Source: an uncultured bacterium
GTDB taxonomy: Bacteria; Chlamydiota; Chlamydiia; Chlamydiales; VGMA01
Assembly: GCA_964655475.1 (NCBI GenBank)
Contig: CAZZMO010000003.1
Coordinates: forward strand, 1,329-65,328
Reading direction: 5' to 3'
Length of the DNA stretch: 64,000 nucleotides
Shown: one piece after another, positions 19,030-27,000 of the stretch
How the letters are laid out: each line of letters begins with the position of its first letter
Numbering within the stretch: the first letter of the stretch is position 1
Translations under genes and position numbers: made by a program
The notes under the pieces: model-generated
Database searches by the model: none
What the model was told of the DNA's origin: nothing
Seen by the model: the letters and a program-made list of their open reading frames with translations, nothing else

Positions 19030-19890
19030 ATGCGCAGTTTAGGGATCTTTTACTTCACATTACTTTGCACTTTTTCACTGAATGCAGAAAAAGTTGTTTT
19101 AATTTCAGGAAGTACTGGTGGGATTGGAGAGGCTACTGTGTGCGCTTTTCAAAAAGAGGGGTGGAGTGTTTGGGCTGGATATCGTAGTCACATTCCCGAT
19201 TCCTTTAGAGATCAAAACAATATCCATCCTATCTATTTGGATGTCAGAGATCCTGAATCGATCAATTCTTCTATCAAAGAGATTATCAAAGCAGAAGGGA
19301 AGATCGACCTTCTCATTAACAATGCAGGATATGGAATCCTTGGATCAGATGAACTCATTGCTCCTGAAGAAATAGAAAAGCTCTTTGAAGTGAACTTTTT
19401 TGGAGCGCTGAGGCTGATCCAACAGGTTGCCCCTTTCATGAAGAAAGAACATTCAGGCCATATCATTAATATCAGTAGCACCTCAGGAGTGAGAGCCGTT
19501 CCAGGTCTTGGAGCCTACGCTGCTTCTAAATTTGCTCTTGAAGGCCTTAGCGAAGCGCTAGCCGTCACCCTTTCTCCATGGAATATCCATGTAGTCGTTG
19601 TCGAACCAGGAACAGTCAAGAATGATTGGGCCTCCCATTGTCAATCTGACCATTCAAAACTCGCAGCTAATCTCCTTCAAAAACTCACCACCCTCGCAAA
19701 AAATGGACAAGAGCCGAGAGATATTGCATCCCTCCTCCTCCGTATCGCTAATGATCCTCATCCTGACATGCGCTACCAAACTTCCCCCCAAGTGCAAACC
19801 ACCCTCAAAGAGAAGCTCGTCGACCTCTCAGGAAACGCCATGCGAGAGAAGCAAACCACATTTTTCGACTCCCTTATGAAGGATCACTAG
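19030..19890 (+). CDS. SDR-family oxidoreductase with a signal-like leader
   Basis: ISGSTGGIG (TGxxxGxG), NNAG and YAASK are the classical SDR motifs. They are preceded by MRSLGIFYFTLLCTFSLNAEK. Confidence 0.8.
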   Translation: MRSLGIFYFTLLCTFSLNAEKVVLISGSTGGIGEATVCAFQKEGWSVWAGYRSHIPDSFRDQNNIHPIYLDVRDPESINSSIKEIIKAEGKIDLLINNAGYGILGSDELIAPEEIEKLFEVNFFGALRLIQQVAPFMKKEHSGHIINISSTSGVRAVPGLGAYAASKFALEGLSEALAVTLSPWNIHVVVVEPGTVKNDWASHCQSDHSKLAANLLQKLTTLAKNGQEPRDIASLLLRIANDPHPDMRYQTSPQVQTTLKEKLVDLSGNAMREKQTTFFDSLMKDH

Positions 19891-20194
19891 AGACAATATC
19901 CTCAAGCAGCTCCAGCCTGAGCCCCCACAAGGTGTTAGCACAACTCGTGATCTTCAGCCCACCTTTCATCATATTTTCGACCCAGGGGTCTAATTGCAGC
20001 GAGACAACTTTGAGCCCCGTTTCTTCAAGTAATTCACGCGTTGCAGAAGTTTCAGTCCTTTCCCCAAATTCTAAGTGCCCCCCAGGAAATCCCGAGCAAC
20101 CAACAACATGCGATTCCATTCTCTTCCCGAGAACTACCTTATTGTCTTTCTCTACCACACACCCAACCCCCACCCGCGGCCGTCTCTCAGACAT
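19874..20194 (-). CDS. NUDIX hydrolase paralog, shortened C-terminal half (possibly degenerate)
   Basis: The Nudix box GGHLEFGERTETSATRELLEETG is intact. It is collinear with the NUDIX at 33798-34217 up to WVENMMKGG, then lacks about 20 aa. Its ends overlap the neighbouring genes on both sides. Confidence 0.5.
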   Translation of the reverse strand: MSERRPRVGVGCVVEKDNKVVLGKRMESHVVGCSGFPGGHLEFGERTETSATRELLEETGLKVVSLQLDPWVENMMKGGLKITSCANTLWGLRLELLEDIVSSDPS

Positions 20195-20756
20195 CACTCC
20201 CATCCACAGTAGCACAAATGTTAGACACAACTCCCTTCAGAGCTTCCTCATAAGACTCGATTAAACATGGGTTTTTTATATTAAATTCAGGCATCCCATA
20301 GTAATATTTTATACAACCTCTCCGAGTCACAATAAAACTTATGTTGGGGACATCGACTTCAGAGTAGTCTGGCTTAAAAAAAAGAAGAGAAATTTCAACA
20401 TTCTTCGCAATAAAAGGGTAATTCGCTAGGTAAGGACGAACTTTTTCATTCCTATTCACCTCATTTACAAAGGTTTCAACAGCATAAACAATCAACTCTC
20501 TCGCTTCATCAAGCGATACATCTCTAAATCCTTGAAAGCTTAAGGCAAGCATTTGAATTTCATTCATCATTTGCCCTCCCGTTCCCACGAGATAAAGCTC
20601 TTTTTCAGTCGTAATTTGACGAGCAACTTTCATCATAATTCGATTAGTAAGAGTTTCTTTTTTTGATATCATATATCCCAAAGGAGTCAGGGGCAAGGTA
20701 TAGAACAACACTCCAAAAACAATGCACCCTATTATCCACCACTTATTGCGTTTCAA
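20187..20756 (-). CDS. Rhs-associated immunity-like membrane-anchored protein, array copy 3
   Basis: Paralog of 20770-21330 and 21344-21904. TM anchor WWIIGCIVFGVLFYTLPLTP. TTG start preceded by GAAGGA. Its C-terminus diverges from the other copies. Confidence 0.6.
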   Translation of the reverse strand: MKRNKWWIIGCIVFGVLFYTLPLTPLGYMISKKETLTNRIMMKVARQITTEKELYLVGTGGQMMNEIQMLALSFQGFRDVSLDEARELIVYAVETFVNEVNRNEKVRPYLANYPFIAKNVEISLLFFKPDYSEVDVPNISFIVTRRGCIKYYYGMPEFNIKNPCLIESYEEALKGVVSNICATVDGSDV

Positions 20757-20769
20757 CGGAATGTCCTTC

Positions 20770-21330
20770 TTAATTGGCTAAGGCCTTATCCTTTGCAGTG
20801 GTAAGAATTTTTAAGCTTTCATCATACTTTTCCACGAGCATTGGATTCCAGAGGTCATATGCGGGTCTTCCCGGATAGTACTCTATTTTTCCTCTGTTAT
20901 TAAAAATGTAAAAAATATGATTTGGACCCACACTAGTGTAGTCATTATTGTAAAACCAAATGCGAATTTCAATATTCTTCGCAGTAAAAGGGTAATTCGC
21001 AAGGTAAGGACGGGTTTTTTCATTCGCATTTACTTCATTTACAAAAGTCTCTACAGCATAAACAATCAGTTCTCTCGCTTCATCAAGCGATACATCTCTG
21101 AATCCGTCAAAACTTAAAGCAAGCATTTGAATTTCATTCATCATTTGGGCTCCCGTTCCGATGAGATAAAGCTCTTTTTCAGTCGTAATTTGACGAGCAA
21201 CTTTCATCATAATTCGATTAGTGAGAGTTTCTTTTTTTGCTATCATATATCCCAAAGGAGTCATGGGCAAGGTATAGAACAACACTCCAAAAACAATACA
21301 GCCTATTATCCACCACTTATTGCGTTTCAA
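20770..21330 (-). CDS. Rhs-associated immunity-like membrane-anchored protein, array copy 2
   Basis: The N-terminal ~100 aa are nearly identical to copies 1 and 3. TTG start preceded by GAAGGA. Confidence 0.6.
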   Translation of the reverse strand: MKRNKWWIIGCIVFGVLFYTLPMTPLGYMIAKKETLTNRIMMKVARQITTEKELYLIGTGAQMMNEIQMLALSFDGFRDVSLDEARELIVYAVETFVNEVNANEKTRPYLANYPFTAKNIEIRIWFYNNDYTSVGPNHIFYIFNNRGKIEYYPGRPAYDLWNPMLVEKYDESLKILTTAKDKALAN

Positions 21331-21343
21331 CGGAATGTCCTTC

Positions 21344-21904
21344 TTAATTGTCTAAGGCCTTATCCTTTGCAGTGGTAAGAATTTTTAAGCTTTCATCATA
21401 CTTTTCCACGAGCATTGGATTTCTGAGGTTATATGCAGGTTCTCCTGGATAATATTCTATTTTTCCTCTGTTGTTAAAAATAAAAGAAATGTAATTTGAG
21501 TCAACCATAGAATAATCTAGTTTATTAAACCAAATGCGAATTTCCACATTCTTTTCTGTAAAAGGATCGTTTGCTAGATAAGGTTTAATCTTCTTACATG
21601 AATTGACTTCATTCACAAAGGTTTCTGTAGAGAAAACGATTAATTCTCTTGCTTCATCAAGCGATATATCTCTGAATCCATCAAAACTCAAAGCAAGCAT
21701 TTGAATTTCATTCATCATTTGTGCCCCAGTTCCTACAAGATAGAGCTTCTTTTCAGCTGTAATCTTACGAGCTACTTTCATCATAATTCGATTAGTGAGA
21801 GTTTCTTTTTTTGATATCATATATCCCAAAGGAGTCAGGGGCAAGGTATAGAATAATACTCCAAAAATAATACACCCTATTATCCACCACTTATTATTTT
21901 TCAT
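21344..21904 (-). CDS. Rhs-associated immunity-like membrane-anchored protein, array copy 1 (cognate position for the orphan toxin)
   Basis: Its ATG overlaps the stop of the orphan Rhs-CT ORF (ATGA, 4-nt overlap). It is homologous to 23460-24002 (shared LVG.G.QMMN.I.MLAL.F, Y...PF.A.N). Confidence 0.6.
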   Translation of the reverse strand: MKNNKWWIIGCIIFGVLFYTLPLTPLGYMISKKETLTNRIMMKVARKITAEKKLYLVGTGAQMMNEIQMLALSFDGFRDISLDEARELIVFSTETFVNEVNSCKKIKPYLANDPFTEKNVEIRIWFNKLDYSMVDSNYISFIFNNRGKIEYYPGEPAYNLRNPMLVEKYDESLKILTTAKDKALDN

Positions 21905-23271
21905 TTAAAATCTCCTGATTGGTCGATAAACTGGTTTATGTGGTTAGATATTTTTTTAGTAAATGTTGGGCTGTTAAAGGCGTGGTCGAATTTGGGGGCA
22001 GAGGGGTGGGAATCTAGGAAGGTGATTTCGTGCGCATGAAAAGGGTCGTTAAATATTGCATGCCAAACAACAAAGTCCCATTTTGTTGCATAATTAAAGG
22101 ATAGATAACACAGCTCGTTAGGGATGATCGCACCGGGGGCAATGGCGAGGGAGATGACGCGATTGCGAACTTCGGGGGAGGCCATCATGAGGGCATTTCT
22201 CACTTGGATGGAACCTCCGCTGTGACTGCCTAAAAACATTTTTGCGTCGGGTGGGGCGGTTTTGTGAAACCGTTGCATTTCTCTAAGGATCAAAAAGCTC
22301 ACATTTGTTGGCATGATTTTTGATGCTAGTAGGCATTCGAGGCTATCGATGGGAGCGGAATCTGTCTGATTGTGGATGCCACGCACTAAGACTCCACCCC
22401 CAAGATTGCTGAGCATTTGCGCGTGTTGTTTGGCGTCTTTCAAACTAGTATTGATACCATTTACAAAATAGATTTCAGCGAATGTTAGCTTTTTTGTCCC
22501 TACTTCGTAAAGAGAAGAAGTTAGGGGTTCAGGGGGATTGAGGTTAAAGCGGAACTGATCGTTAAGGTGGTTGAGATTGGTATTAAAGAGGACAGAATAG
22601 AGCCCTGTGAAGTCGGTGAAGCGGAAGGGGTTGTTGCGGACGAAGGTATAGAGGTTGACGACATCGATAGGGCCGAGGGGATCGGGGGTGGCCCAGCGGT
22701 TTGTTGTGGGGTTGTAGTAGCGTTTGCCGAAGTAGATGAGGTTGGTTTCTTTGTCGTGGTGTTTGAAGGCATAGCGGTAGGGGTTTTCGATGGATTCAAA
22801 GATGTAGATGGGGATGCCAAAGGGATCGAATTCGTAAGAGTTAATGATGGTGTGGGTTTTGGGATCGACGAGATAGCGGAGGGTGTGGGTTGCATCGAAG
22901 AGGGGAATAGCAAGGGTTCCATGGAGATCGAGGAGGACGTTTGCTATTTTTAGAGTAGTGGTCGTGCCGATCTCTTCGAGGCCATCGTAGAGGTAAAGCT
23001 CATCTCCTTTGGAGAGGCGCCTACCGAGGGCATCGTAGGTAAAGTGGATGAGGCCTGCTTGGATCAATCGATCATGTTCATCGTAGGTGAGGGGAAGTCC
23101 GTTAGCGGCTCTGAGATTACCCGTTGCTGGAACGTCAGGAAGATCGTAGTGGGAATCAAACTCACCTCCTAGCTGAGAAAGTTCATCATAGTTATAGGAA
23201 TTAGGGGTAGCAAAGGTGAGATTTCCAAGGGGATCGTAGTGACACTCCTGGGAAAGATGGGGCATGGTCAA
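21901..23271 (-). CDS. orphan Rhs C-terminal module: last ~220 aa of the Rhs core plus a divergent alpha/beta-hydrolase-like toxin domain
   Basis: Residues 4-228 are near-identical to the full-length Rhs core end (PHLSQECHYDPLGN...NPFRFTDFTGL). The tip then differs, carrying VNGINT, GSHSGGS and DHAF. TTG start at 23271, or ATG at 23265. Confidence 0.7.
   Translation of the reverse strand: MTMPHLSQECHYDPLGNLTFATPNSYNYDELSQLGGEFDSHYDLPDVPATGNLRAANGLPLTYDEHDRLIQAGLIHFTYDALGRRLSKGDELYLYDGLEEIGTTTTLKIANVLLDLHGTLAIPLFDATHTLRYLVDPKTHTIINSYEFDPFGIPIYIFESIENPYRYAFKHHDKETNLIYFGKRYYNPTTNRWATPDPLGPIDVVNLYTFVRNNPFRFTDFTGLYSVLFNTNLNHLNDQFRFNLNPPEPLTSSLYEVGTKKLTFAEIYFVNGINTSLKDAKQHAQMLSNLGGGVLVRGIHNQTDSAPIDSLECLLASKIMPTNVSFLILREMQRFHKTAPPDAKMFLGSHSGGSIQVRNALMMASPEVRNRVISLAIAPGAIIPNELCYLSFNYATKWDFVVWHAIFNDPFHAHEITFLDSHPSAPKFDHAFNSPTFTKKISNHINQFIDQSGDFK
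22591..23262 (-). repeat. 672-nt Rhs core-end repeat, orphan copy
   Basis: Aligns nucleotide-for-nucleotide with 24716-25387, with long identical runs across roughly the 3'-proximal 400 nt. Visibly more G+C-rich than its flanks. Confidence 0.85.
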
Positions 23272-23459: not shown

Positions 23460-24002
23460 TTAATAAGTAGTCATGATTTTCACTGCTTCTTCGTAACTTT
23501 CCTGATAGAAGAGGATTCTTGGATAATTTTTAATAATATTATCGCGGTAATAAAAAAGTGTGCCATCAATAGCAGATATGTAATAAAGTTTGTGCTTTTC
23601 CACATTAGATCCATCAGGTTTGTGAACATAAATACCAATGTTAATATTATTGGCTGTGAAAGGGTATGGCTTTAGATAGCGGCGTAGTTCTTTGCTTTGA
23701 TTGATTTGATTGAGATAGGTTTGGACAGCAGTGATTAGAAGATGTCTTGCTTTCGGTAAATCTACCTCTTCCGCATATTCGAATTTTAATGCCAACATTT
23801 CAATTCCGTTCATCATCTGCCCACCGCTCCCTACCAATAGCAACTTCTCTTCAATAAGTAATTTTTTTGCTGTAACCTCTCTGATTTGTGCTACGATCAA
23901 ACTTTCTCTGGACGCAGTATTTTTATGTGGAGTCAGATTAGGTAATCCCAATAATATTGTGTTATTTACAAGAAATATTGATAAAAATAGATAAATTTTC
24001 AT
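23460..24002 (-). CDS. immunity-like protein cognate to the full-length Rhs toxin (signal/anchor plus conserved core)
   Basis: Its ATG shares one nt with the Rhs stop (TAATG). 180 aa. It is homologous to the three array copies but divergent. Confidence 0.6.
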   Translation of the reverse strand: MKIYLFLSIFLVNNTILLGLPNLTPHKNTASRESLIVAQIREVTAKKLLIEEKLLLVGSGGQMMNGIEMLALKFEYAEEVDLPKARHLLITAVQTYLNQINQSKELRRYLKPYPFTANNINIGIYVHKPDGSNVEKHKLYYISAIDGTLFYYRDNIIKNYPRILFYQESYEEAVKIMTTY

Positions 24003-27000
24003 TAGTTTTTCCTGTTCATATATTCTTCAACGTTGTCTTTTAGTTGGGGTTGATAAGTTTGGCTATCCCAATTGTGGTCGTTCCATTTATTCGAACTAGG
24101 GTGTGGGTTAAGGTATATAAGTTGAGGTTTTAACTTAGGGGTCATTACAGTTGCCAACAACGCCACTAGATCGTTCGTACTAGCATAATTATAGGCTCTA
24201 TAGCATAGCTGTCCATCGATAATTGCGCTAGGACCCAGAGCTACGGTATAAAGACGATTGCGAATGATAGAGGGAGAAAAATATAGCGTATTCCTTATTT
24301 CTGTTGTGCCACCACTGTAGCCGCACAAGAAAAATTTCGCTGAGGGGGGTCTATAGGCATGTTCTACGGTGAGAGTACCGAAGAGGTGTCTTTCTACAGG
24401 GGATAGCGGCATGTAAATAGGCCGAGCTCTTACCGAGTACTCAAAAAGATCACAAGCACCGCCGTTAGATGGGTTATAGATTCCAATGGTCTTTGTATCT
24501 CCAGCATATTCACTAATTGTTTGTATGGCGTGCTCTGTTCTGCTAATAGGAGAGTTGATTCCATGTATGTAAATCAGACATTTATCTATACGGTTAAAAT
24601 TTCCTGCGTAGATGGATTTGACGCGATCAGCTTTTTGCTCTGAAAGTGCAATAGCGTGGCTGTAGGGATACTTTGTGTGGTCGATATTGTGATTGAGTTC
24701 AAATTGTTGATAGGGGACGGAATAGAGCCCGGTGTAGTCGGTGAAGCGGAAGGGGTTGTTGCGGACGAAGGTGTAGAGGTTGACGACGTCGATGGGGCCG
24801 AGGGGATCGGGGGTGGCCCAGCGGTTTGTTGTGGGGTTGTAGTAGCGTTTGCCGAAGTAGATGAGGTTGGTTTCTTTGTCGTGGTGTTTGAAGGCATAGC
24901 GGTAGGGGTTTTCGATGGATTCAAAGATGTAGATGGGGATGCCAAAGGGATCGAATTCGTAAGAGTTAATGATGGTGTGGGTTTTGGGATCGACGAGATA
25001 GCGGAGGGTGTGGGTTGCATCGAAGAGGGGAATAGCAAGGGTTCCATGGAGATCGAGGAGGACGTTTGCTATTTTTAGAGTAGTGGTCGTGCCGATCTCT
25101 TCGAGGCCATCGTAGAGGTAAAGCTCATCTCCTTTGGAGAGGCGCCTTCCGAGGGCGTCGTAGGTAAAGTGGGTGGTTCCGGCTTGGATGAGGCGATCGT
25201 GATCATCGTAGATAAGGGAAAGTCCGTTGGCAATGGAAAGGTTTCCTGTCAAAGGGGCGTCAGGAGGATCGTAGTGGGAATCAAACTCACCTCCTAGCTG
25301 AGAAAGTTCATCATAGCTATAGGAATTAGGGGTAGCAAAGGTGAGGTTACCGAGGGGATCGTAGTGACACTCTTGGGAAAGATGGGGTGCTTTGATCTTT
25401 AGGATTTGCCCTTGGGCATCTCGCGTATAGGTCGTCGGGCCACTTTTTAATAGATGTCCTGCTTGATTATATGAGTATTCATGAGTGTAGTCTTTGTATG
25501 AAATGCTTTTGAGTCGAAGATCGTAGGTGTAGAAAACAGTTCCCGTTGGTAGCTTCATGGTAAGAGGGCGGTCGAGATCGTCGTAAGTTTTAGTGATCGA
25601 GAGTCCATTCGAAAAGGTTTCTTGAAGAACATTTCCAAAAGGGTCTATGTTCCGAACAAATCCAGTCCCCTTAATGAGATGTCCTAATTTGTTGTATTCA
25701 AAGGTGTCAGAACCGTTAGAGAGAATGTTCCCTAAGCGATCGTAGGTGTACTCAATCGAAGTCCCGTCTGGTTTGATTTTTGTTTTGCTTGCACGGTCAT
25801 ATAGGTAGGTTGTGATCTCCCCATCTCGGTTGACTGAAGCGAGTTTATTCGTCGGGGTGTAGCTATATTCAGTAATGAGCGTTTTAAGGAGAGTCCCCTG
25901 TTTATAGACCTCTTCTTCTTGGCGGATGAGATTACCCGCAAGGTCATACGTATATCGGAAGGTTTGGATGTTCGGGATCACTTTCGAGATGAGGTTTTCA
26001 TAGATGTCGTATGTTTCTATCGTGACAGTTCCCTTGGGATCTCTCGTGATTTTTTGAAGACCTTGATACTCAATCGTTGTAGTGTTTCCGAGGGGATCAG
26101 TATGAGCGATTAAACGTTTTAGAGGGTCGTAGGTAAAGGTTTCTGTTGAGTCACCATTTGTGATGGAAGATTGATTTCCATCTTCATCGTAGGTGTATCG
26201 GGTTTTTGAGTAGGGAGTCGATTCTTCGATGATGCGATCTAAAAAGTCGTAGGTGTAAGTAGTGGTGATCCCACCTTTATTCATGTGGGCCAAGCGGCTG
26301 AGGGAATCATATGCATATTCAATCACCCGATTACACCGCTCTTCTCTGATTTTGCGTCCTAATTCATCATAGGTGTATTCGGTTCTATACCCTTCAAGAT
26401 CGGTCCATGACAGTAAGCGGTAGGGATCATATGTGTAAGTCTCTTCGCCAATCCCTTCATAGATCTTCGATGTGACTCTTCCAAAAGAATCATATTCATA
26501 TCTAATCCTATTTCCATCGAGATCGGTGTGCTCTTTTAAAAGACCGTTTGGATAATAGCTGTAAGATTCTGAGGTGTTGTCAGGGTAGTCGATTTTTAGT
26601 GGTTGGTTTCTCGCATTGTACGAATAGTAGGTGGTATGTCCATTTCCATCTGTTTTACTAATCTCTCTTCCGTAGATGTCATAAGAGGACTCTGTCACCC
26701 GGTTTCCATGAATGGTTTTGATGAGATGCTTGTCTTGATAGGTGTAATAGGTAGTGCCGAAACGATCTGTTTTTTCTATTAGATTGTCAGCTTTATCGTA
26801 CTTATAGGTAGTTGTATAAAGAGCATCGGAGAATTTTTTTAGACGACCCCGTTTGTCATACTCCATCTTCTGGTAAGGTTTTGAAGAAGAAGTCATTCTC
26901 CCTTCGTGGTCGTAAGTATAGAGAAACTTTTGACCTAGAGCGTTCGTCTCTGAAACGACATTGCCCCTTGGGTTATACTCTCGATAGATCGAATAGAGAA

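Follow-up and report, generated by a model that had tools for sequence, protein, structure and literature searches.

Three tandem immunity-like genes with mosaic divergence behind an orphan Rhs toxin cassette in an uncultured chlamydia

We analysed a stretch of 64,000 nucleotides (nt), hereafter the window, from an uncultured bacterium of the Chlamydiales (GenBank assembly GCA_964655475.1, contig CAZZMO010000003.1, positions 1,329 to 65,328), in which three paralogous genes, here called c1, c2 and c3, stand in tandem directly behind an orphan Rhs toxin cassette. With a probability of roughly 0.72, we read the three genes as a small homogeneous polyimmunity array in a Rhs polymorphic-toxin locus, made up of old paralogs among which segments are still being exchanged. 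Their products would be immunity proteins, i.e., they would bind and neutralise toxin tips, and the copies would differ in specificity.

The array consists of three intact open reading frames (ORFs) on the minus strand, separated by two short spacers:
21344–21904, minus strand: c1, immunity-like gene copy 1; 186 amino acids (aa), ATG start, N-terminal membrane anchor or signal, AlphaFold2 (AF2) model with a predicted local distance difference test score (pLDDT) of 87.8
21331–21343, minus strand: 13-nt spacer gaaggacattccg with the GAAGGA ribosome-binding site for c2
20770–21330, minus strand: c2, immunity-like gene copy 2; 186 aa, TTG start, mosaic, 41 private sites
20757–20769, minus strand: the 13-nt spacer again, likewise with GAAGGA, ahead of c3
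20187–20756, minus strand: c3, immunity-like gene copy 3; 189 aa, TTG start

The distance from start to start is exactly 574 nt both from c1 to c2 and from c2 to c3, and the two spacers are the same 13-mer (gaaggacattccg on the coding strand, cggaatgtccttc on the plus strand), in which GAAGGA lies 7 nt ahead of the TTG. The ATG of c1 overlaps the stop codon of the orphan Rhs tip (ATGA), and no tip remnant was found between the three paralogs. An initial annotation, made from the letters of the window, had described the regular 574-nt period, the conserved spacer with its GAAGGA, the TTG starts of copies 2 and 3 and the position behind an orphan toxin, and all of these were borne out. Tandem Repeats Finder, whose longest period (500) is below 574, returned no match. 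The TTG starts of c2 and c3 look credible because they are in register with the ATG of c1, the ribosome-binding site is kept, and non-synonymous differences in codons 1–30 are well below synonymous ones. All three copies keep the membrane anchor, an anchor-like segment without a lipobox cysteine at the usual position. In the public protein collection, c3 is represented only by a 161-aa protein that begins at Met29 (P0003), a gene call that drops the anchor (codons 1–28, window positions 20673–20756) and that annotation of such loci should take into account. From the Rhs gene to c3, no terminator-like site was detected on the coding strand, and the 22 sites given by a promoter scan did not stand out from the yield of shuffled sequence (18 ± 4); we infer that the array is co-transcribed. 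At its distal end, the array runs directly into a housekeeping-type gene: the stop codon of c3 overlaps a candidate ATG of the next gene on the same strand, a short NUDIX-like ORF (19874–20230 as listed; overlap at 20187–20194), and the final residues of c3 may be derived from this junction.

When compared in register and without gaps, the copies show nucleotide identities of 84% (c1/c2), 69% (c1/c3) and 74% (c2/c3), distributed very unevenly along the unit, and the proteins of c2 and c3 are 82% and 70% identical to that of c1. Residues 31–100 are 87–94% identical among the copies, in agreement with the earlier statement that the N-terminal ~100 aa are almost identical. Between c2 and c3, identity is 88–97% over nt 1–300 and 30–52% past nt 360; the 5' ~330 nt of c3 are about 82–97% identical to c2, whereas its 3' third is near-random at the nucleotide level relative to both c1 and c2 (30–58%). 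Between c1 and c2, identity is 62% around nt 271–330, the differences peak at nt 241–470 and, by codon, at 90–145, and identity reaches 97–98% in the final 90 nt, spacer included. Ahead of nt 360, 47 informative sites group c2 with c3, against 13, and past nt 367, 96 sites group c2 with c1, against 6 (maximum chi-square for the breakpoint 90.1, table [[47,13],[6,96]]; Fisher p = 3e-20 for the coding part alone). Two positions in the array follow from these comparisons:
20964–20971, minus strand: best-supported recombination breakpoint within c2 (unit nt 360–367, about codons 120–122)
20757–20860, minus strand: youngest shared tract, the 3' end of c2 plus the spacer (unit nt 471–574; the equivalent part of c1 is 21331–21434)

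The initial annotation had placed the divergence in the C-terminal third, a picture that gives way to a mosaic with a switch at unit nt 360–367; its remark on marked differences among the copies in the last ~70 aa applies to c3 against the other two copies and fails for c1 and c2, which differ at only 4 positions in nt 471–574. Within the c1-like part of c2, there are 27 mismatches to c1 in nt 361–470 against these 4 in nt 471–574, where a run of 70 nt is identical, and this contrast calls for two or more exchange events that differ in age. A simple two-parent chimera was considered for c2 and rejected, since divergence from c1 is strongly heterogeneous within the c1-like part. The C-terminal module of c3 (residues 120–178) is 51% identical to that of c1 and 39% to that of c2, and the best members of other genomes reach 43%.

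The age of the blocks was assessed from the fractions of synonymous (pS) and non-synonymous (pN) sites that differ, counted by segment after Nei and Gojobori; in the divergent blocks, where synonymous sites are saturated, the comparison was confined to pN versus pS. For c2 and c3, pS and pN are 0.11 and 0.014 in codons 1–30, 0.19 and 0.04 in codons 30–90, and 0.95 and 0.48 in codons 145–186, while for c1 and c2 pS is 0.75–0.82 in codons 90–145 and 0.20 in codons 145–186. In the divergent blocks pS is saturated, at 0.75–0.95, and in the shared blocks of the closest pairs it is 0.11–0.28; because of this contrast, shared and divergent blocks differ in age and not merely in protein constraint. 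As judged from the sequences, c1–c3 are old paralogs, whose similar blocks have been homogenised by recombination (gene conversion or unequal crossover). All three copies are under purifying selection: pN is lower than pS in all segments, and whole-gene dN/dS is 0.15–0.34. A dN/dS comparison along the copies had been proposed in the initial annotation, and in its segment-wise form (pN/pS) no segment had pN above pS; positive selection in the array is not supported, with the qualification that saturated synonymous sites limit inference from dN/dS. Array patterns with a "variable C-terminus" should, more generally, be checked at synonymous sites before positive selection is invoked.

Relatives of the array were sought in one genome per Genome Taxonomy Database (GTDB) species, which yielded 69 loci, nearly all of them in metagenome-assembled genomes (MAGs) labelled Chlamydiae, Simkaniaceae, Parachlamydiales, Neptunochlamydia or Rhabdochlamydia, and a few in genomes whose labels are different or doubtful; tip, Rhs core end and small protein were placed in each by tblastn. 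Among 116 family members, 66 lie directly behind a homologous tip, 35 directly behind another member, and 15 are the first item of their locus or contig. A tip is followed by one gene in 32 loci, by two in 10, by three in 2, by four in 2 and by six in one (L043). At least two adjacent copies occur in 23 of the 69 loci, as arrays of 2 to 6, with gaps between adjacent copies of mostly -16 to 123 nt, and cassettes of a tip fragment and a gene are repeated in L020, L027 and L032. The six-copy array lies behind one Rhs tip at positions 4308–7099 of L043 (CAMDHO010000019.1); both this locus and L014 (CAMBTZ010000095.1) are labelled Chlamydia trachomatis, and the label looks doubtful. The tip nearest to that of the orphan cassette in the window (in L014, 45%) adjoins the nearest outside relative of c1 (46%).

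The mosaic is not peculiar to the window. In other arrays, pS in one part of a pair of copies against another is 0.12 versus 0.88 (L063_3/4), 0.33 versus 0.78 (L026_1/2) and 0.08 versus 0.36 (L032_2/3), with reversed polarity in L043_2/4 (0.16 versus 0.00). Because mosaic pS is seen in several arrays, and in some of them is reversed, exchange between array members is recurrent and not strictly biased to the 5' side. Residues 31–100 are more alike than residues 101–175 in 49 of 69 within-locus pairs, compared with 37% of between-locus pairs.

The small proteins belong to a large family. When 1.84 billion cluster representatives were searched with a profile, 3,293 clusters (50% identity) matched at E ≤ 1e-3 and 2,314 at E ≤ 1e-10. 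The small proteins of the window (c1–c3 and a fourth, distant member, imm4) and both hydrolase tips gave only noise at E ≤ 1 when scanned against Pfam and NCBIfam, a sequence search of the Protein Data Bank (PDB) with both family profiles returned nothing below E = 0.28, and a Foldseek search of the immunity-like AF2 model against the PDB gave no match at E ≤ 0.001 (best E = 0.054, with a template modelling (TM) score of about 0.3). A literature search found no paper on this chlamydial family. The family is uncatalogued; the array pattern itself is already known. The confident AF2 model of c1 (predicted TM score, pTM, 0.78; alignment of 17 sequences) has an N-terminal anchor helix (residues 5–20), a region of helix, β-hairpin and helices (32–109), and four strands with a C-terminal helix (120–185). 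A GTG(G/A)QMM core motif is conserved in the family, and family-wide entropy peaks at residues 131–186. An N-terminal hydrophobic segment is present in 104 of 111 members and a lipobox in 49, and family members are predicted to be exported. Two members (P0021 and P0024) carry four tandem copies of the domain after a signal peptide. Two further architectures were observed. The closest outside relative of c1, P0029 (431 aa, L014 3967–5262), has an additional region of ~250 residues at the C-terminus past the immunity-like domain, and P0016 (246 aa, metagenomic) joins the immunity-like domain in frame with a remnant of the C-terminus of a hydrolase tip (...LEPHLNANFWDHEFLSPTF...), apparently a fused junction of an orphan cassette.

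Upstream of the array, the window contains a full-length Rhs gene, imm4 and the orphan cassette:
24002–28555, minus strand: full-length Rhs/YD-repeat protein; 1517 aa, N-terminal hydrophobic signal-like leader, hydrolase tip A, homologous to tip B
23460–24002, minus strand: imm4, fourth, distant family member; 180 aa, 34% identity to c1
21901–23271, minus strand: orphan Rhs C-terminal cassette, Rhs core end plus tip B; 456 aa
22591–23262 and 24716–25387, minus strand: 672-nt repeat common to the orphan cassette and the main Rhs gene; 93% identity, 100% over about 22680–22980 (~300 nt)

A repeat of this kind is the usual substrate for tip switching. The 1517-aa protein matches RHS_repeat with E = 1.2e-56 over 13 stretches, and the tips diverge once past the core-end motif ...DPLGPIDVVNLY...TD[YF]TGLYSV. 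The locus has the features of a Rhs toxin/immunity module, namely YD/RHS repeats with a variable tip and a downstream gene on the same strand, and the pairing is kept across loci. imm4 stands directly behind the full-length Rhs gene and is presumed to be the partner of tip A. An alignment of 40 tips has exactly four invariant columns (G55, S134, D182 and H213, counted for tip B within the translation of 21904–22620), with S134 in an HSGG/YSGG motif. The AF2 model of the tip (pLDDT 85) gave 243 Foldseek matches at E ≤ 0.001, the best at about 4e-6 with a probability of 1.0, to PETases/cutinases, esterase D, acyl-protein thioesterases, a lysophospholipase and a carboxylesterase. On this model, the tips are α/β-hydrolases with a Ser-Asp-His triad. 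The initial annotation had called the toxin lipase-like, which is reasonable at the level of the fold only (α/β-hydrolase, Ser-Asp-His).

The genome to which the window belongs (1.69 Mb, 88% complete) has three tips, six intact family domains and two fragments. Its second Rhs gene (contig C5:38667–41490; L005 165–3093) ends in a distant hydrolase tip (E = 1.7e-21 to the tip profile) and is followed by two tandem paralogs of 372 and 374 aa, in which MORN_2 repeats and a proline linker (PPPPP) are joined to the immunity-like domain; the MORN_2 scores (27.5 and 22.3 bits) are under the Pfam cut-off of 29.6. On contig C23 (6778–7424), two adjacent family fragments, one with an internal TGA, were found with no detected tip nearby, and we suspect that they are a decayed copy or copies.

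Taken together with the published polyimmunity concept, the tip linkage of relatives (66/116) and the predicted export make spare immunity genes against variant toxins, as proposed in the initial annotation, the best reading of the array. Each copy encodes a small, membrane-anchored, exported α/β protein, which most likely acts at the periplasmic face of the envelope, where it would bind and block a Rhs-borne Ser-Asp-His tip of an esterase-, lipase- or phospholipase-like kind. c1, which is translationally coupled to the orphan tip B, is the probable partner of this tip, and c2 and c3 would most likely be spare variants, kept against the tip variants of rival strains or in readiness for a later change of tip. 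Homology blocks would be provided by the 5' half, which is conserved, and by the 3' end that the copies have in common, together with the spacer; through these blocks, unequal crossover or gene conversion could shuffle modules and hold the 574-nt register. Such exchange may have produced the mosaic c2, which is c3-like to about codon 120 and c1-like beyond, the tract at its very 3' end being the youngest. It is conceivable, but in our view unlikely, that the protein consists of two exchangeable modules, an N-terminal one (~31–119, with GTG(G/A)QMM) that contacts the tip at its invariant catalytic face and a C-terminal one (~120–186) that sets specificity for the variant. If this were true, recombination at the module boundary would make arrays a combinatorial generator of immunity specificities, an evolvable defence for obligate intracellular chlamydiae without type VI secretion in Rhs fights among co-resident symbionts.

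Several observations weigh against the polyimmunity reading. The distances between tips correlate with those between adjacent genes (Mantel r = 0.75; none of 2000 permutations gave so high a value), a pattern that interacting partners should show, but the correlation is confounded, since linkage and shared descent would produce it in any linked pair. The genome, 88% complete, yielded no type VI sheath gene (VipB/TssC, PF05943). No family member is present in the one genome of the same genus that was sampled, and the order of events is not datable by synteny. The excess of N-terminal over C-terminal identity within arrays could, furthermore, include some selection on the C-terminal module.

This last point touches the account given in the initial annotation, i.e., recent triplication, after which positive selection would have diversified a specificity surface in the C-terminal part while the N-terminal 100 aa were simply conserved. 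The c3 protein does diverge more in its C-terminal part, family entropy is highest in the same region (residues 131–186), and the stronger identity of the N-terminal part in 49/69 within-locus pairs, against 37% between loci, is what such a history would leave. A recent event is, however, difficult to reconcile with pS of 0.75–0.95 in divergent blocks next to 0.11–0.28 in shared ones, and diversifying selection with pN below pS in all segments; nor would it produce the sharp phylogenetic switch at nt 360–367, the near-identity of c1 and c2 at the 3' end together with their divergence in the middle, or related arrays with the opposite polarity (L043_2/4). Recent duplication with diversification of a specificity surface is, for these reasons, an improbable explanation of the array. 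Even less is to be said for copies that are functionally alike, whether through dosage amplification (a "gene accordion") or through an artefact in the assembly of a locus with two copies. The exact period would fit, and c2 at first sight equals c3 (5') plus c1 (3'), which a loop in a de Bruijn graph could create, but c2 has 41 private substitutions and differs from c1 at 27 sites in nt 361–470 and from c3 at 29 sites in nt 1–360. An assembly chimera was rejected on the strength of the private sites, and the copies, 18–30% apart in protein, are all under purifying selection, so that we regard dosage or artefact as highly improbable.

An activating role has been reported for some Tli proteins, and lipase-specific foldases exist. 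The proteins of the family might in this way be helpers of the tip, i.e., membrane-anchored factors for its folding, activation or export, and the tight, translationally coupled linkage to a hydrolase tip, the membrane anchor with a predicted periplasmic location and a GTG(G/A)QMM core that is unusually conserved for an immunity family would all suit such a role. A helper that serves its tip one-to-one leaves unexplained the arrays of up to six copies without an intervening tip, the four-domain fusions, the MORN_2 fusions and the orphan cassettes of tip fragments, each with its own copy, and the family shows no sequence or fold similarity to solved proteins, foldases included. We consider the helper role quite improbable, less so than dosage or artefact, and retain the reading as a polyimmunity array. 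On this reading, the family would add a large uncatalogued group, mostly chlamydial in the reference-genome loci examined, to the known toxin antidotes.

Among known systems, the lipase effectors of type VI secretion and their immunity proteins (Tle/Tli) share with the locus a toxin that is a serine hydrolase, with small-x-Ser-x-Gly at its nucleophile elbow, and a partner that is exported or lipidated, which fits periplasmic action. The genome studied here, 88% complete, differs in having no VipB/TssC, and its toxin is a Rhs tip on a protein with a signal-like leader; there is no match to the Pfam families of Tle1-5 or Tli, and the folds nearest to the tip are minimal α/β-hydrolases of the cutinase, esterase and lysophospholipase type. 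The enterobacterial Rhs-CT/RhsI systems with orphan cassettes (PMC3150448) resemble the locus more closely in layout, with a full-length Rhs gene followed by its own immunity gene and an orphan cassette of core end and tip that has a long repeat in common with the main gene and again an immunity gene of its own. In contrast to them, two additional immunity paralogs lie past the immunity gene of the orphan here, and immunity is predicted to be periplasmic and not cytoplasmic.

Tandem immunity paralogs that recombine via conserved blocks have been described for esaG and tipC of type VII secretion (T7SS; Garrett et al. 2022, PMC9484751), and lipoproteins of the DUF576/TilA family, which adjoin the lipase TslA, are exported, multi-copy, recombining immunity proteins (PMC10730906). 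As in these systems, strings of non-identical immunity paralogs lie here next to a polymorphic toxin, and conserved blocks would serve homologous recombination by which the array is shuffled, expanded and contracted. TslA/TilA, a lipase toxin with exported, multi-copy immunity, is the closest functional parallel. The locus differs in belonging to the Chlamydiota and not to the Bacillota, and in a toxin carried by a Rhs protein with a Sec signal and not by a T7SS; it has no match to DUF576 or another Pfam family, so that the likeness lies in organisation and recombination behaviour only, and recombination is deduced here from the mosaic of one genome and not from strain comparisons. Shuffling of arrays by recombination, known for type VII immunity genes of Firmicutes, would thus operate also in the Rhs loci of environmental chlamydiae.

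Homogeneous polyimmunity loci were defined as tandem paralogs of one family, in the same orientation and with tiny gaps, and were proposed to be a backup against the toxins of non-kin (Zhang, de Souza, Anantharaman, Iyer and Aravind 2012, PMC3482391). The array matches them in its three paralogs of the same orientation and its 13-nt spacers, which imply one transcript, and in the absence of a toxin cassette between copies, and multi-domain "polyimmunity proteins" also occur in the same family (P0021 and P0024). It departs from them in having three genes placed directly behind an orphan toxin cassette, not apart from toxin genes, and in a family outside the Imm families that Pfam covers. Extended arrays of at least four genes were found in that survey only in proteobacteria, bacteroidetes, firmicutes and actinobacteria (PMC3482391), whereas in chlamydial-type MAGs (L043, L049 and L063) relatives of the family described here form arrays of four to six copies.

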